This document shows positions 4,591 through 53,516 of a stretch of DNA of 64,000 nt, in pieces. The position numbers were made by a program, and so were the translations under genes. How positions within the stretch are numbered: position 1 is the first letter of the stretch; each line of letters begins with the position of its first letter. Origin of the DNA: Alphaproteobacteria bacterium (GTDB taxonomy: Bacteria; Pseudomonadota; Alphaproteobacteria; Bin95); contig CBDBGH010000003.1 of assembly GCA_965205265.1 (NCBI GenBank), forward strand, positions 4,256,001 through 4,320,000, written 5' to 3'. Below the pieces are notes generated by a model, which saw only the letters and a program-made list of their open reading frames with translations, was not told the origin of the DNA and did no database searches.

Positions 4591-4603
4591 GGCAGCGAAT
4601 TCC

Positions 4604-6577
<1,974 letters not shown>

Positions 6578-26558: not shown

Positions 26559-29123
26559 TTACTTCTCCGACGGCTCATGGGGTCCCAGGAAGCGCTCCCC
26601 GTCGAAATGGATCAGGTGGCTCGGCGCGTCCGCGCACCAGACCTCGGTCTCCCACGAGATGTCGCCAAGGTGCCGGCCCATGATCGAACGATCCGGGAAG
26701 GCGGTCACGTATACGAGGCCGGCGTCCGCATTGGCGAACAGCGCCGCCAGTTCGTGATGCCGCTTGGCATCGACCGGCCCGTGGCTGGTGACCGCCTCGA
26801 TGAGCAGAAGCCACCGCTTGCCGCTGAAGTACAACACGACATCCGGCATCTTGCCGTGCCGGTCGACCGTCACCCCGAGCGCCGCGAGGCGGTCTTCCTC
26901 GAACAACCCGGTCCTGTCGCCCGTGTCGCCCACGTAGATCACTTCGGCGCCGGGCGCGAAGCGCGGCGCGAACGATTCCAGTATCTCCCTGATGAGGTCG
27001 CTGTGCGCGCCCGGCGACAGGACGATCTCCCGGCCCGGCGCGACGGCGACCGGGACCATCCGCATCTCCCGCTCCCGCGCCCACCGCGCGGCCAGCGTCT
27101 TGCGCGCATCGAGCCAGCGGTCGAGCGCGGACTGCCAGCCATCGGTATCCCAGGCGGCGATGACGCGCACCGCCGCTTCGCTGACCTGGTAACAGGCGTT
27201 CGGGCTGTTCACCGGCCGCCCGGGATCGTCGGGGTTGTAGACCGCGATCCCGGCCTCCACGAACTGGTGCATGGTCTGCCGGCGGAACGTCTCGCGCGTG
27301 TTCGGCGCGTATTCCCGCCCATAGTGTTCGCGCGTGTAGTCCATGATCGGCGTGATGCCCATCAGCGGCCGTCGCAGGTCCTGCCAGGCGCCCGACGGCC
27401 GGAGGTCGAGCAGCGCGAGCAAGGTCAGCGCCGAGCGGTCGTTCCGCTGGCCGCGCGGCATGCCGAGCGCCGTGAGGATCGCCAGCGCGTCCTCGATCTT
27501 CTGCTGCGCTTCGAGCGGGTTCCCGTCTTCCGCCATGTCGGCGACCTCCTGTTCGATCGCTGCGTCGATGTCCCGTTGCGGCGGCGCACCGCCCCCATGC
27601 GCACGACCCAGACGCTCCAGCGTCGCACGATCCGGATACCGCAGCGACCGCAGATCCGCCGCGTTGACCTGGGTGTGGCCGTTGAACTGCCGAAAGTATC
27701 GGTCGACGAGACTGCTGTTCAGATACAACGCAAGACCGCGCGCCAGGTTGCGGTCCATGCCCTCGCGGCCGGCATGAAATACATTGAGGTGGTTCTCGAA
27801 GCCGACCAGTTCACCCGGCAGGTCCGAATCATACACCGACGCCACCACGCGGCGGCGCTCCTCCTTGGCCGTGAACCGCCGCGTCACCACGTAGCTGCCG
27901 CGGTTCGGCCACAGCCATTTCCGGCTGCGTTCCGAGACGCGAATCGCGTTCGGCTTGCGCATCGCCTTCGGCCAGGCGAGCGTTCCGCCCCGGAAATGGG
28001 CGGCATAGAGCAGGGGCGCGGCGCCGACCTGCGGCTCCGCCCGCAGATCGTCCCGGTGGCGGAAGTCCACCACCGGGCCGGTGGAGATCGCTATGCCGAT
28101 CTCCGCAAGGCTCGCCGTGAAATGCGCCATGCGGTCGACGATCCCCTGCTCTATTCCGTTGGCGGCGATCCGCACGAACCGTTCGCGGTCGTCCGGGCGG
28201 ATAACCGACTCCTGAGGCACCCTTCTCCAAGTCAGATCCTCAACTCCCCAGACTCCCGCCGCTAGGTCGATTCCCGACACCCTGCCGCTGCTTGTCGTGA
28301 TCGTCACATCGCCCGGCGCGGTATCCTTCACCGCATGCAGGATGACGTTCTCCTGCAGCACGTCGTCGTCCCGGAAGGCGCGGTCCCGGCGTTCGAACAG
28401 ATGGAGGTGCCGCAGGCTCATCATTGAGAAGAACCGCTCCCGGAACGGCCTGAAATACGGACCGTTGCAGAACGAACGCGGCACGATGGCCACTAGTTCG
28501 CCCCCGCAGCGAAGCCGCAGCGAAGCCAGATAGAGGAATCCGGTGTAGAGATTGGAGGTCTCGACCCCGGCCTCGCGCAGGGCCGCGCGGTGCGCCGAGT
28601 CCGCGTTGATCTTGCGGTAGGGCGGATTGAGGATCGCGTGGGTAAAGCCCGCCTCTTCCCGCCTGGCGGCATCGAACAGACCCGGCCGCACGGCCGGGCC
28701 GCCGGCCATGATGAAGTCCTCTTCCACCGATCGGACCGCTGCCTCGATGCCTGCGCTTCGGCAGTGCGCCTCGACCTGCCAGAGAGTATCGCGCAGGTGG
28801 TTCGAGAGCATCGCGTCGATCTCGTAACAGACGAACGCGACGGAGCGCGGTACCGGCCCCGCGGCGCACAGGCGCTCGGCAAGAGCCGCCGTCAACGCAC
28901 CCACGCCAGCCCCCGGGTCCAGCACCCGCAGGTCGCCGGCCGTTTCGGAAAACAGGCTGGCCATGAAACGGGCAATCGGGGCCGGCGTCATGTACTGCCC
29001 GAGCAGCGCCCGCTTGCGGGAGGGGATCCGGGCCGACGCGTCGATCCGGCAGAGGTCTGCGGTCTCGGCGAGGGCTCCCCCGGTCATGCCCGCCGGGCGG
29101 ATTCCACGTGCGGTCTCAGTCAT
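26559..29123 (-). CDS. Fused N6-adenine DNA methyltransferase (Eco57I/TaqI-like) and BsuBI/PstI-family type II restriction endonuclease
   Basis: VLDPGAGVG, NPPY, IVPRSFCNG in the N-terminal part; YAPNTRETFRRQTMHQF, KMPDVV..IEAVTSHGP, ISWETEVW in the C-terminal part. Confidence 0.88.
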   Translation of the reverse strand: MTETARGIRPAGMTGGALAETADLCRIDASARIPSRKRALLGQYMTPAPIARFMASLFSETAGDLRVLDPGAGVGALTAALAERLCAAGPVPRSVAFVCYEIDAMLSNHLRDTLWQVEAHCRSAGIEAAVRSVEEDFIMAGGPAVRPGLFDAARREEAGFTHAILNPPYRKINADSAHRAALREAGVETSNLYTGFLYLASLRLRCGGELVAIVPRSFCNGPYFRPFRERFFSMMSLRHLHLFERRDRAFRDDDVLQENVILHAVKDTAPGDVTITTSSGRVSGIDLAAGVWGVEDLTWRRVPQESVIRPDDRERFVRIAANGIEQGIVDRMAHFTASLAEIGIAISTGPVVDFRHRDDLRAEPQVGAAPLLYAAHFRGGTLAWPKAMRKPNAIRVSERSRKWLWPNRGSYVVTRRFTAKEERRRVVASVYDSDLPGELVGFENHLNVFHAGREGMDRNLARGLALYLNSSLVDRYFRQFNGHTQVNAADLRSLRYPDRATLERLGRAHGGGAPPQRDIDAAIEQEVADMAEDGNPLEAQQKIEDALAILTALGMPRGQRNDRSALTLLALLDLRPSGAWQDLRRPLMGITPIMDYTREHYGREYAPNTRETFRRQTMHQFVEAGIAVYNPDDPGRPVNSPNACYQVSEAAVRVIAAWDTDGWQSALDRWLDARKTLAARWAREREMRMVPVAVAPGREIVLSPGAHSDLIREILESFAPRFAPGAEVIYVGDTGDRTGLFEEDRLAALGVTVDRHGKMPDVVLYFSGKRWLLLIEAVTSHGPVDAKRHHELAALFANADAGLVYVTAFPDRSIMGRHLGDISWETEVWCADAPSHLIHFDGERFLGPHEPSEK

Positions 29124-34171: not shown

Positions 34172-36087
34172 CCTGACTTCGACGGTTGGGCTGACTTCTG
34201 ACCGATCTCGCGTCTGGAGTTTTCAGTAAAGCCAATGAGTTGGCAGTTGCGGTGCGGTCAAGCTGCGTTGTAGTGCCTAGTAAATCTTTGAGACTGTCAA
34301 TGCCTCCGCCACGCGCTACACTCCCCCCATGTTCGTGCGCATCAAGACCTCCCCCAACAGCCCGCGACGCTCGGTCCAGATCGTCGAGGCCGTGCGCGAC
34401 GGCGGCAAGGTCCGACAGCGCATCGTCCGCCATGTCGGCGTGGCCATGGACGAGGACGAGCTCGAGCGCCTGAGGCAGCTCGGCGAGTACGTCAAGGCGA
34501 AGCTGGAGGACGAGCGTCAGCCGGCATTGTTTGCGCCCGAGAAGATCGCTGAGCAGGCGATCCGTGTCGGCCGCCGGGGGGACGGCAAGGAGGAACTCCC
34601 GGTCGACCTCAAGCAGCTTGAAGAGGAGCAGCGCCTGATCACAGGCATCCACGAGGTCTATGGCGAGATCTACCGGCTGCTGGGCCTCGACGCGCTGCTG
34701 CCGCGCTCGCGCTACCGGGCCTCCCATGACGCGCTGTTCCATGTGGTGATGGCGCGGGTAGCCAACCCCGACAGCAAGCGGGGCAGCGTGCGCCGGCTCG
34801 AGGAGGACTTCGGCGTGAGTCTTCCGCTCGAGAAGGTCTACCGGATGATGGATCAGCTCGACGCGACGGTGATCGAGCGACTGCGCACGCGCGTCGGCGA
34901 GGCGAGCCGGTCGCTGCTGCCGGAGCCGGTCGCGATCCTCTTCTTCGATTGCACCACGCTCTACTTCGAGACGGCCGCCGAGGACGAGCTTCGCCAGCAC
35001 GGCTTCAGCAAGGACGGCAAACACAAGGACTCGCAGGTTCTGCTGGCGCTGATGGTGACGCGCGAAGGGCTGCCGATCAGCTACGAGGTCTTCCCCGGCG
35101 CCACCTACGAGGGACACAGCATGGTCCCGGTCCTGCAGGACATGCAGCGCCGCCACCAGGTGGAGCGCACGGTATGCGTGGCCGACCGGGGCATGCTGAG
35201 CGCCGACAACCTCGACGCCATGGACGCCATCGGCGGCGAGTATGTCGTCGGCGCGCGGCTGCGCAAGCTGCCGCTCGCGCTGCTGGGGCAGGTTCTCGAC
35301 CCCGGGACCTATGCCCCGCTGGAGGGCTCACAGGACCGCCGGGTCGGCGAGTGGGAGTACAAGGGCCGTCGCCTGATCGTCGTCTTCTGCCCCCAGCGCG
35401 CACGCAAGGACGCGCACGAGCGCCGCCATCAGGTGGAACGCCTGCTCGACAGGCTGGCCCGCAGCGACAATCCCAGGGAACTGCTCTCCAATCACGGGGC
35501 GAAGCGCTTCATCGCCGTCGAGGGCGACGCACGGCTCACGGTGAACCCGGAGAAGATCGCCGAGGCCGCACGATGGGACGGGCTCACCGGCGTCATCACC
35601 AATCTGCGCGACGCGCGCGTCACCGAAGTGATGGCTCACTACCAGGGGCTCTGGCAGGTCGAGGAGAGCTTCCGGATCACCAAACACGACCTGAAGATAC
35701 GTCCCATCTGGCACTGGAACCCGGACCGGATCCGCGCTCACATCGCCATCGCCTTCCTGGCCTTCGCCTGCGTTCGACACCTTGCGTACCGCGTCGCCAT
35801 CCAGAAGCGGCGGATGTCCCCGGAGGTCATCCGCTCCGCCCTCGTCCACCGCCAGTGCTCCCTGCTGCGCTGTCGGCAATCGGGCAACCGCTACGTCATC
35901 CCCTCGAAGCCGACACCGGCGGCGGAGCAGATTTACGCAACCATGGGGCTGCCCCTGACGATCACCCCGTATCAACTCGCCTGACCGTCGACGAAGCACG
36001 GCTCGAAGAAATGCCGGATGTAGTGCCTAGCCGAAATGAGAACCAGGCAATATCAACTACTTATGCGAATCAACCGTCGAAGTCAGG
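34172..36087 (+). mobile_element. IS1634-family insertion sequence, copy 1 (1916 bp)
   Basis: 17-bp terminal inverted repeats CCTGACTTCGACGGTTG / CAACCGTCGAAGTCAGG; subterminal direct repeat TGTAGTGCCTAG; appears identical to copy 2. Confidence 0.92.
34329..35984 (+). CDS. IS1634-family DDE transposase
   Basis: FFDCTTLYFE, GFSKDGK, VADRGM, LWQVEESFRITKHDL.IRPIWH...RIRAHI. Confidence 0.92.
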   Translation: MFVRIKTSPNSPRRSVQIVEAVRDGGKVRQRIVRHVGVAMDEDELERLRQLGEYVKAKLEDERQPALFAPEKIAEQAIRVGRRGDGKEELPVDLKQLEEEQRLITGIHEVYGEIYRLLGLDALLPRSRYRASHDALFHVVMARVANPDSKRGSVRRLEEDFGVSLPLEKVYRMMDQLDATVIERLRTRVGEASRSLLPEPVAILFFDCTTLYFETAAEDELRQHGFSKDGKHKDSQVLLALMVTREGLPISYEVFPGATYEGHSMVPVLQDMQRRHQVERTVCVADRGMLSADNLDAMDAIGGEYVVGARLRKLPLALLGQVLDPGTYAPLEGSQDRRVGEWEYKGRRLIVVFCPQRARKDAHERRHQVERLLDRLARSDNPRELLSNHGAKRFIAVEGDARLTVNPEKIAEAARWDGLTGVITNLRDARVTEVMAHYQGLWQVEESFRITKHDLKIRPIWHWNPDRIRAHIAIAFLAFACVRHLAYRVAIQKRRMSPEVIRSALVHRQCSLLRCRQSGNRYVIPSKPTPAAEQIYATMGLPLTITPYQLA

Positions 36088-37289
36088 ACGCTGTTCACCT
36101 CCTTGAAGTCGCGTTGGTGGGCCAGATAGGCGTCGATCGCCCTGCTAGTATCCGGCGAGAACTGAATCGTCCCGAAGCCCGATGTCTGTCCTATCGCGTT
36201 GTAACGGATGCTCTCCTGGTCCGGGGCGATCGTGCCGGCGGGCAGTTGCAGCCGGTTGTATTGGCTGGAGCCGTGCACGTACAGGCTGGTGGTGCCGAGA
36301 TAGACGAGCGTGCTGTCGCGTGTGACCCGCTGGTTCTTCATCTGCGACGAGATGATGGACGGACTGGCATACCGGCGTCGGTAGTCGGCGCTGACCTGCG
36401 GGCTGAGCATCAGCAGCGCAACCAGCTTGCCCCCAAGTATTCGATTGTAGGGCGCGATCGCGCCGCAGGTGGTGATCTCGAGCAGATTGGCGCCGGCCCG
36501 CCGCCCCTTCAGCGCCTCCAGGACGATGTTGACCGCGCTTCTTACCTTGTCCTTTCCGAGCGCCGCAGGCGCGCGCTCTGGATCTGTCAGCTCTTGCCTG
36601 TGTTCGGCGATGACGAGCCGGGCCGACAGCAGACGCGACAATGCCGAAGCCCGCTTTCTGGCCACGAGTTGCTTCCGAGCGATGTGCATGCGCGCGTCGG
36701 CGGACGCCTTGGGCTCGAGCCTGAGGATGTCGTCATCGACCGGAGGCGCCGCCTCATCGTCCCAGAGATCGGCTTCGAACCGGTCCTTCTCTGACCCCGC
36801 AACCTCCTTGAGCAGGGTCTCGCGCAACTCCGAGAACTCCTGACCGCGCTGTACCAACCGACCGATAACCGCATGGTCGGGAGATTCAACTTCTTCCGCC
36901 GTGACCAGATTGGTCCACTCGATTTCCGCAAGCGACCTCTCAACCTGTCGCTCCAGCCATCCGACTTCCTCCTCAAGCGCCGCCTTGCCCCTCACGGCGG
37001 CACCGGTGAACCGTTCGACGATCGCCGCAAAATGCCAGCCGATGTATCGCTCGCGCCCCTCGCCCATTTCGAGGGGACAATTGTTGAGCGCAGCGATGCC
37101 GATGACGGGATGCGCCGGGTGCGCGCCGTCTCTGACGAGGTAAAGGAGCTGCCGTCCCGGCGTCGGCACCTGGGGAATCGACCAGCTGTACCGAAAATAG
37201 CGCCAGATCTCGCGCAGACGGCGTCCGGTGGTCTGATCCACGCTCATGTCAGCTTCCTGGAGGTACGGCTTGATGGCGACGCTCAAGGC
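36088..37289 (-). pseudogene. druA: Druantia DruA (DUF4338) gene, middle fragment, truncated by IS copy 1
   Basis: PGRQLLYLVRD..HPVIGIAAL, CGAIAPYNRILGGKLVALL, TTSLY..SSQYNRL, GQTSGFGT. Confidence 0.75.
37105..37289. repeat. 185-bp direct repeat (left copy of IS target duplication)
   Basis: Identical to 39206-39390 (ACGGGATGCG...GCTCAAGGC). Confidence 0.92.
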
Positions 37290-39205
37290 CCTGACTTCGA
37301 CGGTTGGGCTGACTTCTGACCGATCTCGCGTCTGGAGTTTTCAGTAAAGCCAATGAGTTGGCAGTTGCGGTGCGGTCAAGCTGCGTTGTAGTGCCTAGTA
37401 AATCTTTGAGACTGTCAATGCCTCCGCCACGCGCTACACTCCCCCCATGTTCGTGCGCATCAAGACCTCCCCCAACAGCCCGCGACGCTCGGTCCAGATC
37501 GTCGAGGCCGTGCGCGACGGCGGCAAGGTCCGACAGCGCATCGTCCGCCATGTCGGCGTGGCCATGGACGAGGACGAGCTCGAGCGCCTGAGGCAGCTCG
37601 GCGAGTACGTCAAGGCGAAGCTGGAGGACGAGCGTCAGCCGGCATTGTTTGCGCCCGAGAAGATCGCTGAGCAGGCGATCCGTGTCGGCCGCCGGGGGGA
37701 CGGCAAGGAGGAACTCCCGGTCGACCTCAAGCAGCTTGAAGAGGAGCAGCGCCTGATCACAGGCATCCACGAGGTCTATGGCGAGATCTACCGGCTGCTG
37801 GGCCTCGACGCGCTGCTGCCGCGCTCGCGCTACCGGGCCTCCCATGACGCGCTGTTCCATGTGGTGATGGCGCGGGTAGCCAACCCCGACAGCAAGCGGG
37901 GCAGCGTGCGCCGGCTCGAGGAGGACTTCGGCGTGAGTCTTCCGCTCGAGAAGGTCTACCGGATGATGGATCAGCTCGACGCGACGGTGATCGAGCGACT
38001 GCGCACGCGCGTCGGCGAGGCGAGCCGGTCGCTGCTGCCGGAGCCGGTCGCGATCCTCTTCTTCGATTGCACCACGCTCTACTTCGAGACGGCCGCCGAG
38101 GACGAGCTTCGCCAGCACGGCTTCAGCAAGGACGGCAAACACAAGGACTCGCAGGTTCTGCTGGCGCTGATGGTGACGCGCGAAGGGCTGCCGATCAGCT
38201 ACGAGGTCTTCCCCGGCGCCACCTACGAGGGACACAGCATGGTCCCGGTCCTGCAGGACATGCAGCGCCGCCACCAGGTGGAGCGCACGGTATGCGTGGC
38301 CGACCGGGGCATGCTGAGCGCCGACAACCTCGACGCCATGGACGCCATCGGCGGCGAGTATGTCGTCGGCGCGCGGCTGCGCAAGCTGCCGCTCGCGCTG
38401 CTGGGGCAGGTTCTCGACCCCGGGACCTATGCCCCGCTGGAGGGCTCACAGGACCGCCGGGTCGGCGAGTGGGAGTACAAGGGCCGTCGCCTGATCGTCG
38501 TCTTCTGCCCCCAGCGCGCACGCAAGGACGCGCACGAGCGCCGCCATCAGGTGGAACGCCTGCTCGACAGGCTGGCCCGCAGCGACAATCCCAGGGAACT
38601 GCTCTCCAATCACGGGGCGAAGCGCTTCATCGCCGTCGAGGGCGACGCACGGCTCACGGTGAACCCGGAGAAGATCGCCGAGGCCGCACGATGGGACGGG
38701 CTCACCGGCGTCATCACCAATCTGCGCGACGCGCGCGTCACCGAAGTGATGGCTCACTACCAGGGGCTCTGGCAGGTCGAGGAGAGCTTCCGGATCACCA
38801 AACACGACCTGAAGATACGTCCCATCTGGCACTGGAACCCGGACCGGATCCGCGCTCACATCGCCATCGCCTTCCTGGCCTTCGCCTGCGTTCGACACCT
38901 TGCGTACCGCGTCGCCATCCAGAAGCGGCGGATGTCCCCGGAGGTCATCCGCTCCGCCCTCGTCCACCGCCAGTGCTCCCTGCTGCGCTGTCGGCAATCG
39001 GGCAACCGCTACGTCATCCCCTCGAAGCCGACACCGGCGGCGGAGCAGATTTACGCAACCATGGGGCTGCCCCTGACGATCACCCCGTATCAACTCGCCT
39101 GACCGTCGACGAAGCACGGCTCGAAGAAATGCCGGATGTAGTGCCTAGCCGAAATGAGAACCAGGCAATATCAACTACTTATGCGAATCAACCGTCGAAG
39201 TCAGG
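37290..39205 (+). mobile_element. IS1634-family insertion sequence, copy 2
   Basis: Same terminal repeats as copy 1, offset by 3118 bp; flanked by the 185-bp direct repeat. Confidence 0.92.
37447..39102 (+). CDS. IS1634-family DDE transposase
   Basis: 551-aa protein identical to that of 34329..35984. Confidence 0.92.
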   Translation: MFVRIKTSPNSPRRSVQIVEAVRDGGKVRQRIVRHVGVAMDEDELERLRQLGEYVKAKLEDERQPALFAPEKIAEQAIRVGRRGDGKEELPVDLKQLEEEQRLITGIHEVYGEIYRLLGLDALLPRSRYRASHDALFHVVMARVANPDSKRGSVRRLEEDFGVSLPLEKVYRMMDQLDATVIERLRTRVGEASRSLLPEPVAILFFDCTTLYFETAAEDELRQHGFSKDGKHKDSQVLLALMVTREGLPISYEVFPGATYEGHSMVPVLQDMQRRHQVERTVCVADRGMLSADNLDAMDAIGGEYVVGARLRKLPLALLGQVLDPGTYAPLEGSQDRRVGEWEYKGRRLIVVFCPQRARKDAHERRHQVERLLDRLARSDNPRELLSNHGAKRFIAVEGDARLTVNPEKIAEAARWDGLTGVITNLRDARVTEVMAHYQGLWQVEESFRITKHDLKIRPIWHWNPDRIRAHIAIAFLAFACVRHLAYRVAIQKRRMSPEVIRSALVHRQCSLLRCRQSGNRYVIPSKPTPAAEQIYATMGLPLTITPYQLA

Positions 39206-39909
39206 ACGGGATGCGCCGGGTGCGCGCCGTCTCTGACGAGGTAAAGGAGCTGCCGTCCCGGCGTCGGCACCTGGGGAATCGACCAGCTGTACCGAAAATA
39301 GCGCCAGATCTCGCGCAGACGGCGTCCGGTGGTCTGATCCACGCTCATGTCAGCTTCCTGGAGGTACGGCTTGATGGCGACGCTCAAGGCCTCGACCCTT
39401 TCCTCGCCTTCGAGCTCGCGTGCCGGCTCCAGCCTTGCCGCCAGCTCCGCTCCGTCCGCCATGAGCAGCCGCACGCTGCGCCGGCCCGAATGGTCTTCTC
39501 GTTCCATTCTGGCGATGAAGTCCAGGACGGCGGGGTGCCGCTTTTGCTCATCGACAACGGGCTGGAGCTCGCGGCGCAGGATGTCCTTGCTGGCTTTCAC
39601 CTCCGCTGTCGGGCGCCCCCGTACGCTTTCCTTGCGATTCTCCAGAGCGAAGCCGTAGCCCTGTTCGACGATGCGCCAACGCAGCCGCGCCAGATCGGAC
39701 AACACCCGAATGCACGCTTCATAGGCCAACACCTTCTCTCTGCCGCACGTCGCAGATCGACACCAGCCTATCTCTTCCTCCAATGCACGACCCATGTCGT
39801 CCGCGTCTTTACCATTACCCGAATGCTGGGCGCATGCGAGTCTCGTCGCGAACGCATGAAACCGCTCGGCGGCCTCTCCATCCAGAGGTGGATAAATCGG
39901 TACGATCAT
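39206..39909 (-). pseudogene. druA: Druantia DruA gene, 5' fragment, interrupted by IS copy 2
   Basis: ATG at 39909; reads into LREIWRYFRYSWSIP..PGR, which continues in frame on the far side of the IS. Confidence 0.75.
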
Positions 39910-41993: not shown

Positions 41994-42860
41994 TTACGCG
42001 GGGCGTTTGGAGTTTGTCACATACCTCTGCCCGGTAAGCGACGCTCGATAGAGACCGTCGTCAAGGAAATGCAGGAAGGACTTGATCTCACGCCGCTCGG
42101 TGGGCATGACGATCTTGCCGTCCACCACAGTCACGGGCATGTCGACAGCCGCCGCAGCCTCCTGGATCCGATCAACGCCGTAGGTCTCCAGTGTCTCGCT
42201 ACCCGTGATCGCATGAACCAGTCGCCGCACGGTCTGGTCGGCCTGCCCAAGAAAGTCCTCCGGCCTCGCCACCTCGAAGCTCGCGTGATCCGCAAAATTC
42301 CGAATCTCCTGATCCGTTGCGGCCCTGTAGATGCCGGACAAATCGACAATGGCTCTCATCTTGTGAAAGCTCTTGAACTTCAGCCGTCCTTCCTCAGCTA
42401 TGCACGTCAACGAGGAATCGAAGGTAAACGCGGAATCGCTGAGGCGGCGAAACGCGTTTCCATGCTGCAGAAGAGAAAAGCGGCGCGAGAGCACCTGCCG
42501 ACCGGAAAACTGCTGGATCAACACCTTCGTCGCTCCGTCGTCCACGATCCCAGTGAACAATGCCCGAATGCCTTCCTGATCGAAGCGTCCAGTGTCCAGG
42601 TCGGGAATCGCGACCGCGTTGGCTTCGATAGTCTCGAAAAACACACGCGCCTCATCGGGCGTATCGACGACCAGAACCTCGTTGTCATCGGGTTTCCAGC
42701 TGCCGTCGAATTCGACCTCCTCCTCCACCCCTCTTCGGAATTGCTCTTCCTGCTCGCGAAAAACGTTCTCGACAGCTCCCTGCACGTCATTGTCCAGACG
42801 CACGCGCTTGGCGACCAGACGACCGTTTACCCGGCACGCGCCGAACAGATTCTGAGGCAT
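41994..42860 (-). CDS. kwaB: Kiwa anti-phage protein KwaB (DUF4868)
   Basis: F..Q...F......FDGSWKPDDNEVL...IQQF...L...F..L.D.AFTFD.SL...LKFKSF...IVDLS..YR.ATD...FLDD.LY...LTG.RYVTNSKR; coupled to a membrane gene. Confidence 0.72.
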   Translation of the reverse strand: MPQNLFGACRVNGRLVAKRVRLDNDVQGAVENVFREQEEQFRRGVEEEVEFDGSWKPDDNEVLVVDTPDEARVFFETIEANAVAIPDLDTGRFDQEGIRALFTGIVDDGATKVLIQQFSGRQVLSRRFSLLQHGNAFRRLSDSAFTFDSSLTCIAEEGRLKFKSFHKMRAIVDLSGIYRAATDQEIRNFADHASFEVARPEDFLGQADQTVRRLVHAITGSETLETYGVDRIQEAAAAVDMPVTVVDGKIVMPTERREIKSFLHFLDDGLYRASLTGQRYVTNSKRPA

Positions 42861-43384
42861 TACTGGCTTTCCTCCAAGTCTATCACGATGTACTCCGTCA
42901 ACTGACCCACTGTGATTGCCTCCGTGGCATTCCGAAGATGCTTCCTGGTGATAAGCACGTAGGTAACGCCTTCCTTGGTATTGACCTTGTAGAAGTGCCA
43001 ACCGATCAATCCCAGGAGCGGGTTGAAGTGATAGGTATACCCCGTCGCAACGACCACACCGAAGATGAGCAGGGCCGGAATCCACACTTGCCAGTTGAAT
43101 GACGCGATATCGTCAGTGAACAACGGCAGCAGATAAAGCAGCAGAAAGGCGATGTTCTCGCGATCGGCGGCTTCCACCGCAACCGCTTCGAACGTCATGC
43201 GTTCCAGGTTCTTTCTCGCGTAACGCAGCAGGAACACACACAGCAGGACAAGACCCGCGCATCCCGCCAACAGCAGTACGGCCAGGCACTCCTTGTCTTC
43301 CTGGTAAGCGACCCAAGCGTATGTCAATAGTACGGGTGCGACCGCCGTGCTGGTCAGCAATAGTCTGGCCACCCTGCTCAGCAT
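42860..43384 (-). CDS. kwaA: Kiwa anti-phage membrane protein KwaA
   Basis: About four TM helices; motifs FLLLYLLPL and FNPLLGLIGWHFYKV....VTYVLIT; TAATG overlap with kwaB. Confidence 0.72.
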   Translation of the reverse strand: MLSRVARLLLTSTAVAPVLLTYAWVAYQEDKECLAVLLLAGCAGLVLLCVFLLRYARKNLERMTFEAVAVEAADRENIAFLLLYLLPLFTDDIASFNWQVWIPALLIFGVVVATGYTYHFNPLLGLIGWHFYKVNTKEGVTYVLITRKHLRNATEAITVGQLTEYIVIDLEESQ

Positions 43385-44269: not shown

Positions 44270-45181
44270 ATGCCCAGCCGCATCGCCGACATTCCCGTGC
44301 CGCCCCGGTGCCGCCAGATGATCCGCGCCGGCGCCCTCGTCGTCATCAATCACAGCGGCGGCAAGGACAGCCAGGCGATGACGATCCTGCTGTCCCGCAT
44401 CGTGCCCGCCGGCCAGCTCATCGCCGTCCACGCGCCGCTCGCCGAAGTCGAATGGGAGGGCGTCGTCCCGCATATCGAGGCGACCCTGCCTGCCGGCATG
44501 CCGCTCGTCATGGCGCGGGTTTCGTCCGGCGAGACCCTGCTCGAACGGGTGGAGGAACGCGGCCTCTGGCCCTCGAATTCGGCGCGCTGGTGTACCTCGG
44601 ATTTTAAGTCCGGACCGATCCAGAGGGAGTTGCGCCGGTATCTGAAGGCCCATCAGCGCTTCGGCGGGCGGCTCGTCAACTCCATGGGCATGCGCGCCGA
44701 GGAGAGCCCGGCGCGCGCACGGAAGACGCCGTGGCGGCGCAACGACCGGATGAGCGTCGCGGGCCGCGAGGTCTTCGACTGGCTGCCGGTGTTCGGCCTC
44801 TCGACAGAGGACGTCTTCCGCGTCATCCGCGACGCCGGTCAGGCGCCGCACTGGGCCTACGCCGCCGGCATGTCGAGGCTGAGTTGCAGCTTCTGCATCC
44901 TGGCATCCCGCGCCGATCTGCGCCGGGCGGCCGAACTTCGCCCGCAGCTCTACCGCACCTACGCGGAGATCGAGCGCCGCATCGGCCACACCCTGTCGCC
45001 CTCCGCCGTTCCCCTGCCGGAACTGACGGGCATTTCGCCGTCCGAGGCCGGCGACGGCCAGGACGCGCTGGGTCTCGGCGGCCTCCGATCCCGGCCTGCG
45101 CCGGAACGGCAGCGCCTCGCACGGCGCACCGGCGTCAAGCCCCGGTGTTCACGGAGCGGAGCGGAGCCAAGGGCCGGGTGA
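44270..45181 (+). CDS. PAPS-reductase-family (PP-loop) protein, mobile-element type
   Basis: SGGKDS, RWCT..K, GMRAEES.AR, WLPV, RLSCSFC. Confidence 0.82.
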   Translation: MPSRIADIPVPPRCRQMIRAGALVVINHSGGKDSQAMTILLSRIVPAGQLIAVHAPLAEVEWEGVVPHIEATLPAGMPLVMARVSSGETLLERVEERGLWPSNSARWCTSDFKSGPIQRELRRYLKAHQRFGGRLVNSMGMRAEESPARARKTPWRRNDRMSVAGREVFDWLPVFGLSTEDVFRVIRDAGQAPHWAYAAGMSRLSCSFCILASRADLRRAAELRPQLYRTYAEIERRIGHTLSPSAVPLPELTGISPSEAGDGQDALGLGGLRSRPAPERQRLARRTGVKPRCSRSGAEPRAG

Positions 45182-47244: not shown

Positions 47245-48668
47245 TGGCCGCCCGCGTGCTCAACGAGTCCGCGCTCCGTGTGAGCGACTGCGTGACGGAG
47301 CTGCTGCGCAAACAGCCCTTCTTCGGCAGCCTGGTGCTGCGCCTGCCGCTCCGTCCCGATCCCACCCGCGAGACGCTGGCGACGGACGGGCACGAGATCC
47401 GCTACTCGCCGCAGTGGGTGGCGGAGACCGAGGCGCATCTCATCGAGACGGCCATGGCGCGGGTGGTGATGGCGTGCGCGCTCAAGCACCACACGCGGCG
47501 GGGCGAGCGCGATCCCGAGCGCTGGCAGATTGCCTCGCAGCTCGTCACCCATGCGCTCATTCGCGACGCCGGGTTCACGCTGCCGCCCGACGCGGAAGCC
47601 TGGGACGATCTCAGCGTCGAGCAGGCCTATGACCGCCTGCTGACGCCCGGGGACGGCGATTCCGGAGACGACGGCGACGCATCCTCCGGCACCGCCGGTG
47701 CCGGCACGCCCGCCGCCGGGGAATCCTCACCGGACGGCGATGACGACGGCACGGGGGATCCGTCCGACGCCACCGATGACGGCGACGGCCAGGATTCGAG
47801 CGATGCTCAAGACGGCGACGCCGAAGCTGACGGCGGGGATGCCCGGACGTCGCACGACGCCAATGCCGATGCCGAGGGTCAGGGCGAGGATGACCCGTCC
47901 GATGCCCCGCCGAGCCACGATCCCTCCGGCACCGGAGAGGTCATGGACGCCGGCGCACGGGCGGGCGATAGCCACGATCCCGCCGAAACGCCGGTGGACG
48001 TCGCCGCCGAGGAGCAGGCCTGGGACGAGGCGATGCACCAGGCCCTCAACATCGCCCGCGCCGAGGGCAAGGCGCCGGGCCGGGTCGAGGAGACGGTGAA
48101 GGGCGCCCATGCGAGCACGCTGGACTGGCGAACGCTGCTGCGGCGCTACATGACCGACGCGGCGAAGAGCGACTATTCCTGGAGCCTGCCCAACCGGCGC
48201 TTCATCGACTCCGGGCTCTACCTTCCCTCGATCCGTTCGGAGGGGATGGAGACGATCGCCGTCATTGTCGACACCTCGGGCTCCCTGCCGGTCGCGACGC
48301 TGGCCGCGTTCTGGGCCGAGTTACGCGAGATCGCGGTCGAGACCCGCCCCGAGCGCGTCGTCCTGCTCCAGGTCGACGCCGCCGTGCAGGACGCATCCGA
48401 GTACGCACCCGACGAGCTGCCCGAGGAGATCGTCGTCAAGGGACGCGGCGGCACCGACTTCCGGCCCGGATTCGAATGGCTCGACGAGCACGGAATCCAA
48501 CCGGCGGTATGCCTGTATTTCACGGACATGGAGTGCTCCAGCTACCCCGAGACCGAACCGAATTTCGGAGTCGTCTGGGTCAACTGGAGCGACCCGCCCG
48601 AGGACTGGAACCGCGAGCCCTGGGGCGAGCGCATCGACATCGCCCCCGCCGGGAGCGCCGCACCGTGA
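47244..48668 (+). CDS. DUF2201-type protein: metallopeptidase-like N-domain, acidic linker, VWA domain
   Basis: PFFGSL, TLATDG..I.Y, W...LRRY, VDTSGS (MIDAS), GRGGTDFRP.F, YFTD. Confidence 0.8.
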   Translation: MAARVLNESALRVSDCVTELLRKQPFFGSLVLRLPLRPDPTRETLATDGHEIRYSPQWVAETEAHLIETAMARVVMACALKHHTRRGERDPERWQIASQLVTHALIRDAGFTLPPDAEAWDDLSVEQAYDRLLTPGDGDSGDDGDASSGTAGAGTPAAGESSPDGDDDGTGDPSDATDDGDGQDSSDAQDGDAEADGGDARTSHDANADAEGQGEDDPSDAPPSHDPSGTGEVMDAGARAGDSHDPAETPVDVAAEEQAWDEAMHQALNIARAEGKAPGRVEETVKGAHASTLDWRTLLRRYMTDAAKSDYSWSLPNRRFIDSGLYLPSIRSEGMETIAVIVDTSGSLPVATLAAFWAELREIAVETRPERVVLLQVDAAVQDASEYAPDELPEEIVVKGRGGTDFRPGFEWLDEHGIQPAVCLYFTDMECSSYPETEPNFGVVWVNWSDPPEDWNREPWGERIDIAPAGSAAP

Positions 48669-48889: not shown

Positions 48890-49237
48890 GGCCGGCGCAG
48901 CCCGGGCGCGACGGCGCGCGCATCGCTTCGGCTTCCTCCGCCGGCCATGCGCTGCCGCGAGGCGGAGGCCGGCGCAGGGCGGGCGAACCGTCGATAAAGG
49001 AGGACTGCCATGATCTGGCCACCGGCCCCGCCCGGTGAGCCTGCTGTCGCCCCGACCCTGATCCAGTTTGCCCGGAACACGGCCCCGCACCGCCGTCCCG
49101 CCGCCTCGCCTCGCCCCTTTCGGCAACGCCGCCGGGAGGCGGAGCGGAGCAGAGGTCCGGGCGGCGCGGACGGGGCGGCGGGAGCCGTTCCCGGCGCCAC
49201 GCTTTCTTCTTTCCCACACACCACCAGGGAGGTTCGC

Positions 49238-51646
49238 ATGAACTTCATCGCCCCCAGGGCCGAGCCGATCATCCGGGAGATCCCGCTCTCCATGCTCGCG
49301 CTCGCGCCCGAGAACGTCCGCAAGACCCCGCCCGATCCGCAGGCCGACGCCGAGCTCAAGGCCTCGATCGCGGCCTTCGACCTGCTGGAGAACCTGGTCG
49401 TCCGCCCGGATCCCGGATCGGGTCCGGGACAGGCTCCGGATGCCGACGGCATCGAACGCTACGCCGTGGTCGCCGGCGGGCGACGCCTCAAGGCCATGCA
49501 GGCGCTGGTCGAGGACGGCGTGCTGGATGCCGCCCATCCCGTGCCCTGCCAGGTCAGGTCCGGCGACGCCGCGACCGCCGAGCTCTCGCTCGCCGAGAAC
49601 GTCATCCGTATCCCCATGCACCCGGCCGACCAGGTGACCGCCTTCGCCGAGCTGGTCGACGCCGGCCAGCCGGTTCCCGCCATTGCCGCGCGCTTCGGCG
49701 TTTCCGAGCGGCTGGTCGAGCAGCGGCTGCGGCTCGGCAACGCCGCCCCCGAGCTGCTGGACGCCTACCGCGCCGGTGAGATCGACCTGGAGACGCTCAA
49801 GGCCTTCGCGGTGACCGCCGACCGCGCCCGCCAGACGGCGGTGTGGGAGCAGGTCTCCGGACAGGGCTACCGGCCCGCGGCCTGGCAGGTGAAGCGCATG
49901 CTGACCGAGGAGCGGGTGCCGGCGAACGCCGCCGTCGCCCGGTTCGTCGGGGTCGAGGCCTACGAGGCCGCCGGCGGCCAGGTGCTGCGCGACCTCTTCG
50001 CCGACGAGCACGAGAACGGCGTCTGGTTCGAGGACCCGGCGCTGCTGGAGACGCTCGCCATGGCGAAGCTCCGGGCCGCCGCGGACGAGCTGGCGACCCG
50101 CTGGAAGTGGGCCGTGCCGATGATCGAGACCGCGTGGAGCGACACCGCCTCCTACGGCCGCGTCGAGCCGCAGCCCGGCACGCCGACGGACGAGGAGAAG
50201 GCCGAGATCGACCGTCTGAGCGCCCGCTACGACGAACTCCGCGACCTCGACGACGACGAGTGGACCGAGGCGCTGGTCGAGGAAGCCCACCGCATCGAGG
50301 CGCGGCTCGACGAGATCGAGGGCGCCGTCGAGGCCCGCGCCATGTGGCGGCGTGAGGACTTCGCCATGGCGGGCTGCATCGCCACCGTCAACCGCAACGG
50401 CTCGCTCCAGGTCATCGCCGGGCTGGTCAAGCCGGAAGACATGCCGAAGCCGGATGGGTCCGGCGACGCCACCGCGCAGGCCGGCAACGGTCACGACCCG
50501 GCCGCCGGCATCCACACCGCCGGTCAGGCCGATCGCACCGCCGCTCCGTCCGTCTCCCAGCCCATGGCGGGGCCGAGGGACCGCGAAGCCGAGGCGCGCA
50601 AGGAGGCCGGCGTCGGCATCGGCCTCGCCGACGACCAGCGCGCGATCCGCACCGCGCTGGTGAAGGCGTATCTCGCCGGGGACTTCGAGGCCTCCTTCGA
50701 CCTCATGCTGTTCCAGATGGGCCGCGCGGTGTTCACGGCGGGCTATCGCGACCACGCCCTCGACATCGCGGTCAAGGAGACCCCGGACCGGCCCAACACC
50801 CGGGTGAACGACGCCGACTTCGCGGCCTGGTCGCCCGGCGAGGCGATGCTGGAAGACCGCTCGCACCTGTCGCTCGACTGGCTGGAGATCGAGGACGACG
50901 GCGAGTCCTTCTCAGCCTTGCGGGCGCTGCCCCAGCCCGACAAGGAGGCGCTGTTCGCCGCCTGCGTCGCGCGCACGGTGAAGGGCCAGCTCGCCTTCGA
51001 GCCCCAGGCGCGCCCCGAGCTCGAAGCCACCGTCGCGAGGCTCGACATCGACTTCGCGAAGCACATCCGGCCCACGGCGGCCATGTACTGGTCGCGCATC
51101 AACAAGAGCCGCGTCCTCGACATCGCCCGCGCGGTGTTCGGCCTGGCCTGGGCGTCGGCGCGGTCGAAGTACAAAAAGCCGGCGCTGGCCGAGGCGATGG
51201 AGGCCGCCTTCGCGGCCGGCGACCCGCCGGTCGGGGTCACCGCCGCGATGCACGCCAAGGCGCTCGCCTGGGTTCCGCCGGGCTTCGCGGCGTTCGACAC
51301 CGGGCGCATCGGAAACGGGGCGGACCGCGCCGCCGACGCGGATGCGCAGCCCCGGGCCGATGCCGCCGGCGCGGACCCGGCTGCCGATACCGGGACCCCG
51401 GCCGCGGACACCGGGGTCGCGTCTGCGGCGACGGAAGCCGCTCCGCCGGCCGGCGATGACGGCCATCCCGGCAACGGCCACGCCGGACCCGCGGACCCGG
51501 CGACCGCGGCGCCGACGGACCAGGGCGGAGAGGAAGCCGACAGCGGCGAAACCGCTGCCGAAACCGCCGCGCCGCCCCCGGTGCCGGCGAACGGCCGCGA
51601 CAGCGGCGACGGGCTCGACATCCCTGAGTTCCTCCGCCGCGTCTGA
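49238..51646 (+). CDS. ParB/RepB/Spo0J-family protein (long ICE/plasmid type)
   Basis: ENVRKT, LKASI...LLENLVV, YAVVAGGRRL, SLAEN.R..MHPAD, HTH IAARFGVSERLVEQRLRL; RBS GGGAGG. Confidence 0.88.
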   Translation: MNFIAPRAEPIIREIPLSMLALAPENVRKTPPDPQADAELKASIAAFDLLENLVVRPDPGSGPGQAPDADGIERYAVVAGGRRLKAMQALVEDGVLDAAHPVPCQVRSGDAATAELSLAENVIRIPMHPADQVTAFAELVDAGQPVPAIAARFGVSERLVEQRLRLGNAAPELLDAYRAGEIDLETLKAFAVTADRARQTAVWEQVSGQGYRPAAWQVKRMLTEERVPANAAVARFVGVEAYEAAGGQVLRDLFADEHENGVWFEDPALLETLAMAKLRAAADELATRWKWAVPMIETAWSDTASYGRVEPQPGTPTDEEKAEIDRLSARYDELRDLDDDEWTEALVEEAHRIEARLDEIEGAVEARAMWRREDFAMAGCIATVNRNGSLQVIAGLVKPEDMPKPDGSGDATAQAGNGHDPAAGIHTAGQADRTAAPSVSQPMAGPRDREAEARKEAGVGIGLADDQRAIRTALVKAYLAGDFEASFDLMLFQMGRAVFTAGYRDHALDIAVKETPDRPNTRVNDADFAAWSPGEAMLEDRSHLSLDWLEIEDDGESFSALRALPQPDKEALFAACVARTVKGQLAFEPQARPELEATVARLDIDFAKHIRPTAAMYWSRINKSRVLDIARAVFGLAWASARSKYKKPALAEAMEAAFAAGDPPVGVTAAMHAKALAWVPPGFAAFDTGRIGNGADRAADADAQPRADAAGADPAADTGTPAADTGVASAATEAAPPAGDDGHPGNGHAGPADPATAAPTDQGGEEADSGETAAETAAPPPVPANGRDSGDGLDIPEFLRRV

Positions 51647-51752
51647 CCGCCCCGCCGCATCCCGGGATCGTCCCGCTGCTACTCCCGGTTTCCGGACCGG
51701 GACGGGCGGCGGGGCGTTTCCTTTCCGCATCCCGATCATGGAGGTTCTCCGC

Positions 51753-53516
51753 ATGGACCCCGCCGCCGCAACGCCGCCCGTACCCATCCGCGCGCGCATC
51801 CACGAGAGCGCCGTGAAGCGCGTCACCCGCATCTACGCCGCCACCCTGGCCGACATCTTCGCCGAGACCCTTCAGAACAGCCGCCGCGCCGGCGCCGCCC
51901 GCGTCCGCATTGCGGTTGCCGGTAGCGCCAACGCGCCGGACGCTGGCGAGCCGTCCTTCACCGTCACCATTTGCGACGACGGCGCCGGCATCGCCGATCC
52001 CGCCGTGCTGCTGAGTTTCGGCGAGAACGGCTGGGACGACGCGCTGGTCCGGCGCGAGGACGCCGCCGGCTTCGGCTTCGCCAGCCTGGCGCGCCGCAAC
52101 TGCGCCGTCTCTTCCCGGCCGCGCTCGACCGATGGCGAGATTGCGCCCGGCTGGCGCGTCGAACTCGCTCCGGAGCACTTTCTCGGCGAGGCCAACGCCG
52201 AGGTCCGGGCCGACGAGCAGGCCCCGTATCCGCAAGGAACGGCTATTTCGTTCCGGGCGACGGAGCATGCCGCCGCGATCCGCAGCGCGGCCGAGACCGC
52301 CGCCCGGCACTACCCGCTGCCGGTGATCTTCGAGGACCGAACCGAAGACGATTCCGCCGGTCCGGAAGAGCTGCCGCGCCGCGCCTTCCTCGACGGCGCG
52401 GTGCACGCCGAGCGATGGCGCGGTCTCGTGTTCGGCGTCTTCAGGAACCGCCATGCCGGCTACAACGACCCCGACCTCAATTTCCACGGCCTGACGCTGG
52501 CGCTCCGCCTGCCCACCGTGGAGACGGTCCACGGCGCCACCTGGACCGTGTTGGCGGACGTGGACGACTGCCCGGACCTGGAGCTGGTCCTGCCGGCCCG
52601 CAAGGAGGCGGTCGAGAACGCCTTCCTGAAAGAGATGCGCGCGGCCGCCCGGCTCAGCATCTACCGCGCCATGGCGGGCGATCCGAACCCGCGCCCGGCC
52701 TTCGAGGACTGGACGCGGGCGCGCGAGGCCGGCATCGACATCGCGCCGCCGCCGGCCGTGCTGCGCCCCTGGCGGCCCGCCATTGCCCATGTCGACGACT
52801 GGCGCGACCCACCCAAGCTCGCCGCCGTGGGCCGGCACACCCTGGTCGTGGACTGCGATCCCGAGCCCCACGAGGCCCAGGCGCTTTGGCGCGCCGCCGA
52901 ACGCAACGGCGCCGCGCCGCGCCTGTTCGAGCCCGACCGCAGGCTGGAAGGCTACGGCTGGTACGACGGGCTCCACCGGACGACCCCCATCGACGTCGAG
53001 GTCACGCTGGACGGAAAGCCGTATGCGCTGGACGACGCTCCGTTGCCGGAACGGACGGGTCCGACCGCCGCGGAGCTGCCGCCAAGGCCGGAAGCGCTGC
53101 GCATCGAACTCGTCGTGCGGGCGACGGACGGCCCGGCAGATGCGCTTTTCCTGCCCACCGATGTCGCCTTCGCCGGCGAGGCCTGGTCCCACCTCGACGA
53201 CGCCCTGCCGCTGGTGGCCGCGGACAGCGCGATCCAGCCGCACCAGCTCGCCGTGCTGCTCAGGGCCGCCTTCTTCTCGCCTTCGGACGACGTCGAGGCG
53301 GACAGCTGGGAGACCCAGCGGGACCGCTTCGACGAGGAGGCCCTGCATCTCGCGACGCGGCTGCTGCTCAGCGACGACGAGGCCTGCCGGCAGTCCATCG
53401 CCGAGGCGGTGCGGCGCGAGCTGATGTGGTTCGTCCCCCACGACCGCGCCGTCGACATCCGCATCCGCCGGCCCGACGTGACCGTGACACTCGCCGCCGA
53501 GGAGGCCGCGCCGTGA
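51753..53516 (+). CDS. GHKL (HATPase_c) ATP-binding protein
   Basis: ETLQNSRRAGA (N box), DDGAGI (G1 box), AGFGFASL (G2 box), GT; RBS GGAGG. Confidence 0.78.
   Translation: MDPAAATPPVPIRARIHESAVKRVTRIYAATLADIFAETLQNSRRAGAARVRIAVAGSANAPDAGEPSFTVTICDDGAGIADPAVLLSFGENGWDDALVRREDAAGFGFASLARRNCAVSSRPRSTDGEIAPGWRVELAPEHFLGEANAEVRADEQAPYPQGTAISFRATEHAAAIRSAAETAARHYPLPVIFEDRTEDDSAGPEELPRRAFLDGAVHAERWRGLVFGVFRNRHAGYNDPDLNFHGLTLALRLPTVETVHGATWTVLADVDDCPDLELVLPARKEAVENAFLKEMRAAARLSIYRAMAGDPNPRPAFEDWTRAREAGIDIAPPPAVLRPWRPAIAHVDDWRDPPKLAAVGRHTLVVDCDPEPHEAQALWRAAERNGAAPRLFEPDRRLEGYGWYDGLHRTTPIDVEVTLDGKPYALDDAPLPERTGPTAAELPPRPEALRIELVVRATDGPADALFLPTDVAFAGEAWSHLDDALPLVAADSAIQPHQLAVLLRAAFFSPSDDVEADSWETQRDRFDEEALHLATRLLLSDDEACRQSIAEAVRRELMWFVPHDRAVDIRIRRPDVTVTLAAEEAAP

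Follow-up and report, generated by a model that had tools for sequence, protein, structure and literature searches.

Why would a ParB-family protein encoded on a mobile island end in a peptide that resembles the tail of FtsZ? The question is raised by one gene in a 64,000-nucleotide stretch of DNA (the window) from an alphaproteobacterial genome (assembly GCA_965205265.1, contig CBDBGH010000003.1, positions 4,256,001 to 4,320,000 of the forward strand). The gene occupies window positions 49238..51646 on the plus strand, within an enclosing open reading frame (ORF) of 49010-51646 (+), and its most likely start codon is the ATG at 49238, which has a GGGAGG ribosome-binding site just 5′ of it. 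The product, here called P0001, consists of 802 amino acids followed by a stop codon and was assigned from its ORF and translation and by comparing a profile of its family with Spo0J and Noc structures. A first-pass annotation of the same DNA, made from the letters alone, had proposed that this mobile-element ParB carries an FtsZ-like peptide on a disordered linker and that the peptide could couple the element to cell division.

The C-terminal peptide and its match to FtsZ tails

The C-terminus of P0001 reads ...NGRDSGDGLDIPEFLRRV*. The FtsZ-like peptide, DGLDIPEFLRRV (residues 791-802; 51608..51643, +), was defined with an FtsZ-tail matrix and by its conservation, and its core, read from the sequence, is DIPEFLRR (51617-51640, +). 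In front of it lies a linker rich in Ala, Pro, Asp, Gly and Thr (residues 691-790; 51308..51607, +), which is predicted from its composition to be disordered: A, P, G, D, T, E, S, N and Q make up 92% of its residues and hydrophobic residues 3%, and its net charge is -15. A conserved W-x-PPGF anchor (residue 680) precedes the linker. These residues agree with the roughly 100 amino acids of low-complexity Ala/Pro/Asp/Gly sequence that had been annotated after the folded region, and the annotated span of 51300-51646 takes in linker, tail and stop codon. An NGRD element (residues 785-788; 51590..51601, +), in which N785 and G786 are nearly invariant in an alignment of close homologues, stands just ahead of the peptide. 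The motif class is a core of the form (D/E)-(I/V)-P-x-F-(L/M)-(R/K) near the C-terminus after a linker, and P0001 presents it as ...GLDIPEFLRRV*.

Both FtsZ strings to which the peptide had originally been compared were recovered, the E. coli DYLDIPAFLRKQAD in the part of PMC4117426 available to us and the alphaproteobacterial ...LEIPAFLRRQAN by direct observation. The core acidic-I/V-P-x-F-L-R(R/K) is common to the ParB peptide and FtsZ (E. coli, as above; alphaproteobacterial ...LLEIPAFLRRQAN). The likeness extends to architecture, as FtsZ and the ParB protein each consist of a folded part, a long disordered linker and a peptide a few residues from the C-terminus, with matching fixed and free positions. 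They differ in that the carrier here is a DNA-binding protein of the ParB family rather than a tubulin-like GTPase, that x is mostly Glu, that an extra NG(H/R)D element lies upstream, and that the terminus is RRV(Q/H) as opposed to RRQAN in FtsZ. A tubulin/FtsZ GTPase domain is absent from P0001, and TIGR00065 matched the genome once, at C3:326992-327924. The tip of SSB is an acidic run ending DDDIPF-COOH, in which Phe is the last residue. Mimicry of this tip was considered and rejected, as the register is wrong: in D-I-P-E-F-L-R-R-V, P is separated from F by one residue and the chain runs on for four more after F.

To place the likeness on a numerical footing, a 12-column matrix was built from 30 FtsZ tails (27 alphaproteobacterial and 3 from other phyla, with the host genome and unpublished genomes left out) and scored at all 11,399,458 six-frame positions of the host genome. 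The highest score, 26.4 bits, fell to the ParB tail, and a 31-tail matrix gave the same outcome; the annotated FtsZ-like peptide is thus the best FtsZ-tail match genome-wide. The host's own FtsZ tail (LNIPAFLKRQAN) ranked third, at 22.3 bits. Host FtsZ (G000:C3:326992-327924, minus strand) ends ...AEDDEQLNIPAFLKRQAN after a long Ala/Pro/Glu-rich linker of its own. Rank 2 was taken at 23.5 bits by DILQIPAFLCRQ, which lies inside a KdsA-like folded enzyme, 159 residues before its stop (G000:C3:2914914, +), and is a chance likeness in a folded protein. Because such a match ranks second, the string alone does not signify function, and the disordered terminal context matters.

A wider search gave a similar picture. 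The DNA pattern for [DE]IPxF[LF][RS][RS] matched in 293 of 401 alphaproteobacterial genomes, mostly once each, and a reversed-pattern control was nearly always zero. Inspection of 59 matched loci gave 28 FtsZ C-termini, 21 ParB-type tails and 10 short or odd ORFs, and FtsZ was the only chromosomal protein among them with the peptide at its C-terminus. When 20 of the ParB-type loci were re-tested, 18 proved to be true P0001 homologues (48-70% identity), and the two failures were short remnants. Two loci (L053 and L057, in genomes G155 and G191) contain short ORFs of 36-44 codons past the previous stop that end ...NGHDPARVPLEIP(E/K)FLRRV(P/H)* and in which no ParB body was detected; they probably represent what is left of ParB 3′ ends.

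Conservation of the tail and the proteins that carry it

Conservation of the peptide was measured among close homologues. A (D/E/A/Q)IP(E/G)FLRRV terminus was present in 116 of the 120 best database homologues (71-100% identity), the other four being truncated or ending differently. Across these 116 sequences the mean frequency of the commonest residue was 0.97 in the last 12 columns versus 0.60 in the linker, 20% of which consisted of gaps. The alignment of homologous long ParBs that the first-pass annotation had suggested as a check thus shows a peptide that is kept while its linker diverges. In 44 close sequences P796, F798, L799 and R800 are invariant and R801 is nearly so. Judged from these alignments, the peptide is under strong purifying selection and the linker is not.

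The same holds over a broader set of 80 related loci, obtained from a scan of one genome per species. An (I/V/L)PxFL motif lies 2-10 residues from the stop in 75 of them; two others run off the contig and three end differently. The titles of these loci include metagenome-assembled genomes labelled Alphaproteobacteria, Binatia, Dehalococcoidia, Nitrospinota, Gemmatimonadota, Deltaproteobacteria and Gammaproteobacteria, and since several of the contigs measure 0.4 to 4 Mb, some of those from other-phylum genomes exceeding 1 Mb, mis-binning cannot explain all of the cross-phylum loci. The fixed positions are an acidic residue, I/V/L, P, F and L/M, and only x varies, a pattern as in FtsZ. The closest likeness was seen in a sister subfamily, 55-60% identical and present in 5-8 copies in three genomes, which ends ...LLEIPAFLRRG* and so matches the LLEIPAFLRR of many alphaproteobacterial FtsZ proteins at 10 of 10 residues. 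The host itself carries two paralogues (G000:C3:3464588-3466804, +, and C3:5374642-5376858, -), both 72% identical to the window copy and with mutually identical tails, ...NGHDVDAGPAAIPEFLRHVR*.

The NG(H/R)D element accompanies the tail in nearly all close homologues and related loci and in only 14 of 53 distant tail-bearing representatives. It occurs twice in the protein, once as NGHD at 50486-50497 in an internal linker (alignment columns of at least 0.9) and once about 10 residues before the tail, and both copies are conserved in close homologues.

At greater distance, 9529 family representatives were found at E<=0.001, of which the best 150 were sorted by their C-termini. Thirty-eight end within 30 residues of the anchor and mostly have neither linker nor peptide, though two of them (P0194 and P0201) still end in the core motif; 53 have a linker of more than 30 amino acids, and in 37 of these 53 the last 25 residues contain [LIVMA]Px[FWY][LMIF]; the remaining 59 are fragments or wrong-frame calls that lack the anchor. 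Linker length past the W.PPGF anchor ranges from 35 to 143 amino acids among distant relatives. A second set, also of 53 representatives, was chosen regardless of the anchor and comprises proteins of more than 450 amino acids in which a core motif lies no more than 28 residues from the C-terminus. Here Pro is invariant, Phe is found in 48/53 and Leu or Met in 53/53, x is Ala in 36/53, and the preceding residue is usually acidic. Plasmid-borne members end ...DALPAFLSSDAA (pSMR1-6) and ...SDLPAFLTDNGGCD (the Ti-type plasmid pTiS7/73). This wider-family tail pattern leads to the conclusion that the ancestral feature is an acidic Phi-P-x-F-Phi peptide on a linker, which the window subfamily has sharpened into a full FtsZ-like peptide.

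Two side observations concern the same family. Many distant members (P0121-P0270) end ...AAE*, and enterobacterial relatives end ...ACAA* (L063:3896-5905) or ...ADAA* (L064:3890-5848); endings that recur in this way could constitute a C-terminal signal of their own. In addition, numerous relatives of the ParB gene and the 587-codon gene downstream of it, at 85-99% likeness, occur in sequencing runs coded X6, X7 and X20, which are labelled as sponge and coral-reef metagenomes. Contigs of X20, X7, X6 and X5 cover the folded parts of both genes across 49238-53516, including contigs from one library recorded as metatranscriptomic; contigs cannot show transcription, and their cover is thin over both linkers and carries no inference.

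The carrier itself is a divergent ParB-family protein and not a canonical partition ParB, as matches to solved structures are strong while scores stay under the cut-offs of curated models. When a profile built from 83 family members was compared with solved structures, it matched Spo0J (1vz0) at E 6.9e-26, Noc (7ng0) at 4.9e-25 and ParB (6sdk) at 1.1e-20, the Spo0J and Noc matches together spanning E 6.9e-26 to 7.4e-23; Noc 7nfu and 7ol9, ParB 6t1f and KorB 8qa8 were matched as well. The family assignment made at first pass is upheld by the Spo0J and Noc matches. They place a ParB N-terminal domain and helix-turn-helix region at residues 1-230 (49238..49927, +; profile positions 3-211). As a single sequence, P0001 scored 18 bits with Pfam ParB_N, under the cut-off of 26.3; it reached 26.4 bits with the canonical partition model TIGR00180 (cut-off 58.45) and 59.3 bits with the PRTRC-system model TIGR03734 (cut-off 278.6), in the latter case over residues 26-205 only. 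An arginine patch, VVAGGRRLKA (residues 77-86; 49466-49495, +), was read from the sequence. G80, R83 and N121 are invariant across the 83 members, and both a GxRR patch and an ENxxR box (LAENVIR) are present, which we take to be CTP-binding boxes; P0001 may accordingly bind CTP. The CTP clamps KorB and canonical ParB (8qa8, 6sdk, 6t1f) have the N-terminal ParB fold, the GxRR patch and the helix-turn-helix in common with P0001, which differs in falling under the partition and PRTRC cut-offs and in its family-specific body of about 450 amino acids, for which Pfam and PDB profile searches gave no solved or curated relative. This body region is interrupted by an internal low-complexity linker (residues 405-462; 50450..50623, +; 79% small or polar and 9% hydrophobic residues). 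No ParA-type domain was found among those of the island ORFs that were scanned, and a PADLOC search of the ParB protein gave no match.

Carriage of the peptide is not confined to ParB proteins. A codon-restricted pattern for [DE]IP[ADES]FLRR was used to scan IMG/VR and matched 34 viral contigs (L185-L218), as compared with 0 for the reversed pattern and 2 for a permuted codon order. The matches lie in ORFs whose third-position GC exceeds that of the locus and in an Ala/Pro/Asp-rich context; by our own tally the motif is N-terminal in about 10 of them, internal in 13 and C-terminal in 11. Twenty of the viral ORFs were compared with Pfam and included three MT-A70 DNA methylases, two GapR-like proteins and one each of DUF1376, DUF3102 and DUF3310; of the rest, one had a sub-threshold RMF match and 11 had no family. 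Among 92 long GapR-like proteins, 64 have (I/L/V/A)PxF(L/V/I/M) in a C-terminal extension, mostly 7-15 residues from the end, and EIPAFLRR is the commonest form. These proteins (P0280-P0371, homologues of L196:4962-5606:-) consist of a GapR domain, a linker and a tail, and many end ...SFGEQA*, a second conserved motif. A tblastn search with a 113-amino-acid viral protein bearing an N-terminal motif found nothing in GenBank phages, and a GapR-like query matched phages over the GapR domain only. In view of the phage and GapR-like carriers, the peptide is a portable module of mobile-element DNA-associated proteins and not a peculiarity of ParB.

Candidate receptors and competing explanations

What could such a peptide bind? 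Six partners of the E. coli FtsZ tail are documented in the available part of PMC4117426 (FtsA, ZipA, MinC, ClpX, ZapD and SlmA), where I374 and L378 of FtsZ are described as critical for ZipA, FtsA, MinC and SlmA; R379 contacts FtsA and matters for ClpXP (PMC5256927, also available in part). Five of the six (FtsA, ClpX, MinC, ZipA and ZapD) were searched for in the host. FtsA, whose gene adjoins ftsZ, and ClpX are present, and MinC_C, ZipA_C and ZapD were not found in the genome, which is 98.98% complete. Among the receptors listed by the first-pass annotation, FtsA and ClpX therefore remain candidates in this host, while MinC and ZipA appear to drop out.

We tentatively read the P0001 tail as a portable FtsZ-tail mimic that would dock DNA-bound ParB to FtsA, a possibility that we favour but would not call probable. 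As judged from family membership, ParB dimers would load on element DNA and accumulate there, and the DNA-bound protein would display many FtsZ-like tails at once. Such an array would resemble an FtsZ filament and might engage a host FtsZ-tail receptor with avidity; the likeliest receptor in this host would be FtsA, the only classical FtsZ membrane tether detected. FtsA at the membrane or the site of division would then anchor element DNA and be kept locally from FtsZ, so that cell division would be coupled to the element or delayed by it. We infer the receptor binding and all of these physiological consequences.

Several considerations argue for this reading. FtsZ-tail mimicry is the most economical explanation because the peptide is under strong selection, is tied to no single neighbour and in its sharpest form is indistinguishable from an FtsZ tail, and because the fixed positions are those that FtsZ uses for FtsA, ZipA, MinC and SlmA, including I374 and L378. 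FtsA docking in particular is favoured because the hydrophobic core, and not the basic end, is conserved family-wide, and because the motif is often non-terminal in phage proteins. SlmA binds the free FtsZ tail peptide with a Kd of 81 µM versus 0.21 µM for full-length FtsZ (PMC4117426, same excerpt), a difference which suggests that a weak peptide gains function when arrayed on DNA-bound proteins. SlmA also provides a functional parallel: it is a DNA-bound link to the FtsZ-tail network, as the ParB protein would be, and both depend on avidity. It is a TetR-type receptor of the tail, whereas ParB carries a copy of the tail and would compete with FtsZ rather than bind it.

Other observations weigh against docking to FtsA. 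The tails of both host paralogues (AAIPEFLRHVR) match the FtsZ matrix poorly, at -5.0 bits, and an acidic (L/V/I)PxF(L/M) core is all that distant family members retain, the basic residues being lost (+5 is R in 15/53 and often acidic). At x, Glu predominates in the closest subfamily; the 30 matrix FtsZ tails have Ala, Ser or Thr there, and one Dehalococcoidia FtsZ has Asp. FtsZ has nothing equivalent to the conserved NG(H/R)D element, and the KdsA match shows that a high matrix score is possible inside a folded protein unrelated to FtsZ. Hosts labelled as other phyla were also compared. In four of these the FtsZ tails are DIPTFLRK, DVPTFLRK, DTPTFLRN and NIPDFLR and the ParB tails DIPEFLR(N/S/G), DIPEFLRG, DIPEFLRR and DVPAFLRR; no fine co-variation of ParB with host FtsZ tails was found in the four, which share the universal core only. 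Finally, MT-A70 methylases and GapR-like proteins of phages carry the peptide too and have no obvious link to division, and the receptor may be a different hub. Two further results do not discriminate: FtsA is present in 4/4 of the other-phylum hosts and adjoins ftsZ, which is consistent with an FtsA receptor, and a complex prediction for host FtsA with ParB residues 753-802 gave a score of 0.00 (mark 0.32), with controls that were unfolded, so that it carries no weight either way. Of the division coupling originally proposed, the FtsZ-like peptide is thus secure, and the division-specific part is less certain, given the unrelated phage DNA-associated carriers.

The tail might instead be a ClpX degron, the foremost of the alternatives. 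ClpXP would then recognise linker plus tail, and the ParB protein would be short-lived or timed to the cell cycle and have no role at the divisome. A ClpX gene is at hand in the host, and timed turnover would be sensible for all of the unrelated DNA-binding carriers on mobile elements. In the close subfamily R800 is invariant and R801 nearly so, in keeping with the importance of R379 in E. coli, where linker, conserved region and variable region together suffice for degradation of GFP by ClpXP (PMC5256927, in the part available); AKEPDYLDIPAFLRKQAD is moreover tabulated as a C-terminal ClpX degron in the accessible part of PMC8138137. E. coli ClpX recognition, however, involves residues 379-383 and a linker site (PMC5256927, same part), and the basic end of the ParB tail is not conserved family-wide. 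The viral motif, being often far from the C-terminus, also fits a docking peptide better than a terminal degron. On balance we consider a degron rather unlikely.

A second alternative is that mobile-element DNA-associated proteins dock to some other host hub, for example a replisome or nucleoid component, and that the likeness to FtsZ reflects convergence on a similar hydrophobic groove. The list of carriers speaks for this: the peptide is found on viral MT-A70, GapR-like, DUF1376, DUF3102 and DUF3310 proteins (34 loci versus 0 and 2 in the controls) and a related motif on 64/92 long GapR-like proteins, and every identified carrier family is DNA-associated. The ParB NG(H/R)D element, having no FtsZ equivalent, points the same way. 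The canonical beta-clamp motif is QL[SD]LF. Neither it nor the SSB tip fits the register of the peptide, and our results support no candidate hub. The 10/10 identity of the sister subfamily with alphaproteobacterial FtsZ would be hard to explain without a shared receptor, and FtsZ stands alone among chromosomal proteins with the peptide at the C-terminus in the 59 inspected loci. Convergence on another hub is accordingly an explanation that we doubt.

Two further alternatives are highly improbable. The tail could bind an element-encoded partner, most plausibly the 587-amino-acid downstream protein, whose gene follows ParB in 75/80 related loci, or could fold back on ParB itself, but the LPAFL-tailed ParBs of pSMR1-6 and pTiS7/73 have no such gene directly downstream and the peptide occurs on unrelated proteins without this neighbour. 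Equally, a translocation signal that sends ParB into recipients through a conjugative type IV secretion system (T4SS) is suggested by enterobacterial relatives in an ssb-parB-psiB-psiA leading-region cluster and by the passage of pED208 ParB2 through an F-type T4SS, with up to 1e-3 recombinants per donor (PMC8406263, available in part), but the enterobacterial homologues lack linker and peptide, the peptide is also on phage proteins, there was no VirB4-family match in the genome, and none of the three ParB copies has a coupling-protein match closer than about 200 kb.

In its most general form, FtsZ-tail mimicry would be a mobile-element module, in which the peptide is grafted via disordered linkers onto unrelated DNA-binding proteins; once these coat element DNA, a DNA-scaffolded, polyvalent imitation of the FtsZ filament would capture FtsA and other receptors, and phages and integrative elements would thereby exert a nucleoid-occlusion-like control of division. 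This generalisation is speculative and, at present, improbable.

The island, related systems and significance

The ParB gene lies on an integrase-bounded island, which bears out the mobile-element setting proposed at first pass. Metabolic genes extend to about window position 20,300 and are followed by genes for a DUF4143 ATPase and an amidohydrolase. Then come a restriction-modification fusion, in which a BsuBI/PstI-type endonuclease is joined to an Eco57I-like methylase domain (26559-29123, -), a broken ABC gene, an RTX-repeat gene, two insertion sequence (IS) copies and a KwaB (Kiwa) homologue (41994-43085, -; E 6.3e-115). The IS copies are an exact 1919-bp direct repeat (34172-36090 and 37290-39208), each with a 551-amino-acid DDE_Tnp_1 transposase, and we therefore regard them as two copies of one IS. 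Next are a PAPS-reductase-like gene whose product is BrxP- or SspD-like (44270-45181, +), a MoxR-like gene, a DUF2201 gene, ParB, the 587-amino-acid gene, RadC, DUF6573, HNH and a Strawberry-notch-like helicase/methylase. The sequence just past the window (L179, G000:C3:4320001-4340000, 650-6495) encodes a Gp49/HigB-like protein, the reverse transcriptase/maturase of a group II intron, a 212-amino-acid integrase fragment and a 385-amino-acid integrase that includes an arm-binding domain; LysR and metabolic genes come next. This integrase region probably forms the island's right end, and neither end yielded a tRNA. A mobile island is supported by these features, in the sense of mobility only, conjugation having no VirB4 or nearby coupling-protein match.

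The two neighbours of ParB differ in how constant they are. The upstream DUF2201 gene, which is metallopeptidase-like or VWA-like (47247..48668, +; Pfam DUF2201_N at E 2.1e-40 and DUF2201 at E 1.3e-23), precedes ParB in 45/80 related loci. The 587-amino-acid gene (51753..53516, +), an operon neighbour by conserved synteny, has no assigned family, and its homologue directly follows ParB in 75 of the 80, making a conserved two-gene module. Its product had no Pfam, NCBIfam or PADLOC match; its N-terminus has, by eye, putative GHKL-ATPase-like motifs (ETLQNSRRAGA, DDGAGI, GFGF). PADLOC searches of the DUF2201, MoxR-like and 315-amino-acid proteins likewise gave no match.

How does P0001 compare with known ParB-family proteins on mobile elements and elsewhere? 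Noc, too, is a ParB-family protein with a short terminal peptide as a second attachment that bears on division. It attaches by an N-terminal membrane-binding amphipathic helix, whereas the peptide of P0001 is C-terminal and copies a protein-docking motif. P0001 was rejected as a Noc itself, at 28 bits against a model cut-off of 315. The leading-region ParB2 of IncF and IncI plasmids (ssb-parB2-psiB-psiA; PMC8406263, in the part available) is homologous to P0001 residues 12-628 at about 28% identity (E 6e-40). Like P0001 it belongs to a mobile element, lacks a neighbouring ParA and has no known function, and the accessible part of PMC8406263 reports no detected phenotype for its deletion. ParB2 lacks the linker and the FtsZ-like peptide, ending ...WVPGWM...AA*, and it is flanked by ssb and psiB, where the P0001 gene is flanked by the DUF2201 and 587-amino-acid genes.

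A literature search, which did not cover supplementary files, gave no description of an FtsZ-tail-like peptide on ParB or any other mobile-element protein, and the strings IPEFLRR, IPAFLRR and EIPAFLRR had 0 occurrences in the literature searched. In one preprint (10.64898/2026.01.09.698686), as far as its available part goes, ParB serves as a reporter only. ParB-family proteins with an appended docking peptide are already known, in Noc and in the ParA-binding N-terminus; what is new is that the peptide copies the motif of a host cytoskeletal hub. Eukaryotic viruses are well known to imitate short linear motifs of their hosts, and to our knowledge few cases come from bacteria.

Bacterial cytokinesis has the FtsZ tail as its central docking hub, which serves at least six partners in E. 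coli (PMC4117426). A near-perfect copy of it on a mobile-element protein is a concrete candidate, open to testing, for a link between element DNA and division, the membrane or ClpXP turnover. Its importance is raised by its conservation across hosts labelled as different phyla, by its multiple copies in some genomes and by its occurrence on unrelated phage DNA-binding proteins. The tail also offers a first functional handle on a very large orphan family of 'ParB-like' proteins, which includes the ParB2 of F-type and I-type resistance plasmids.

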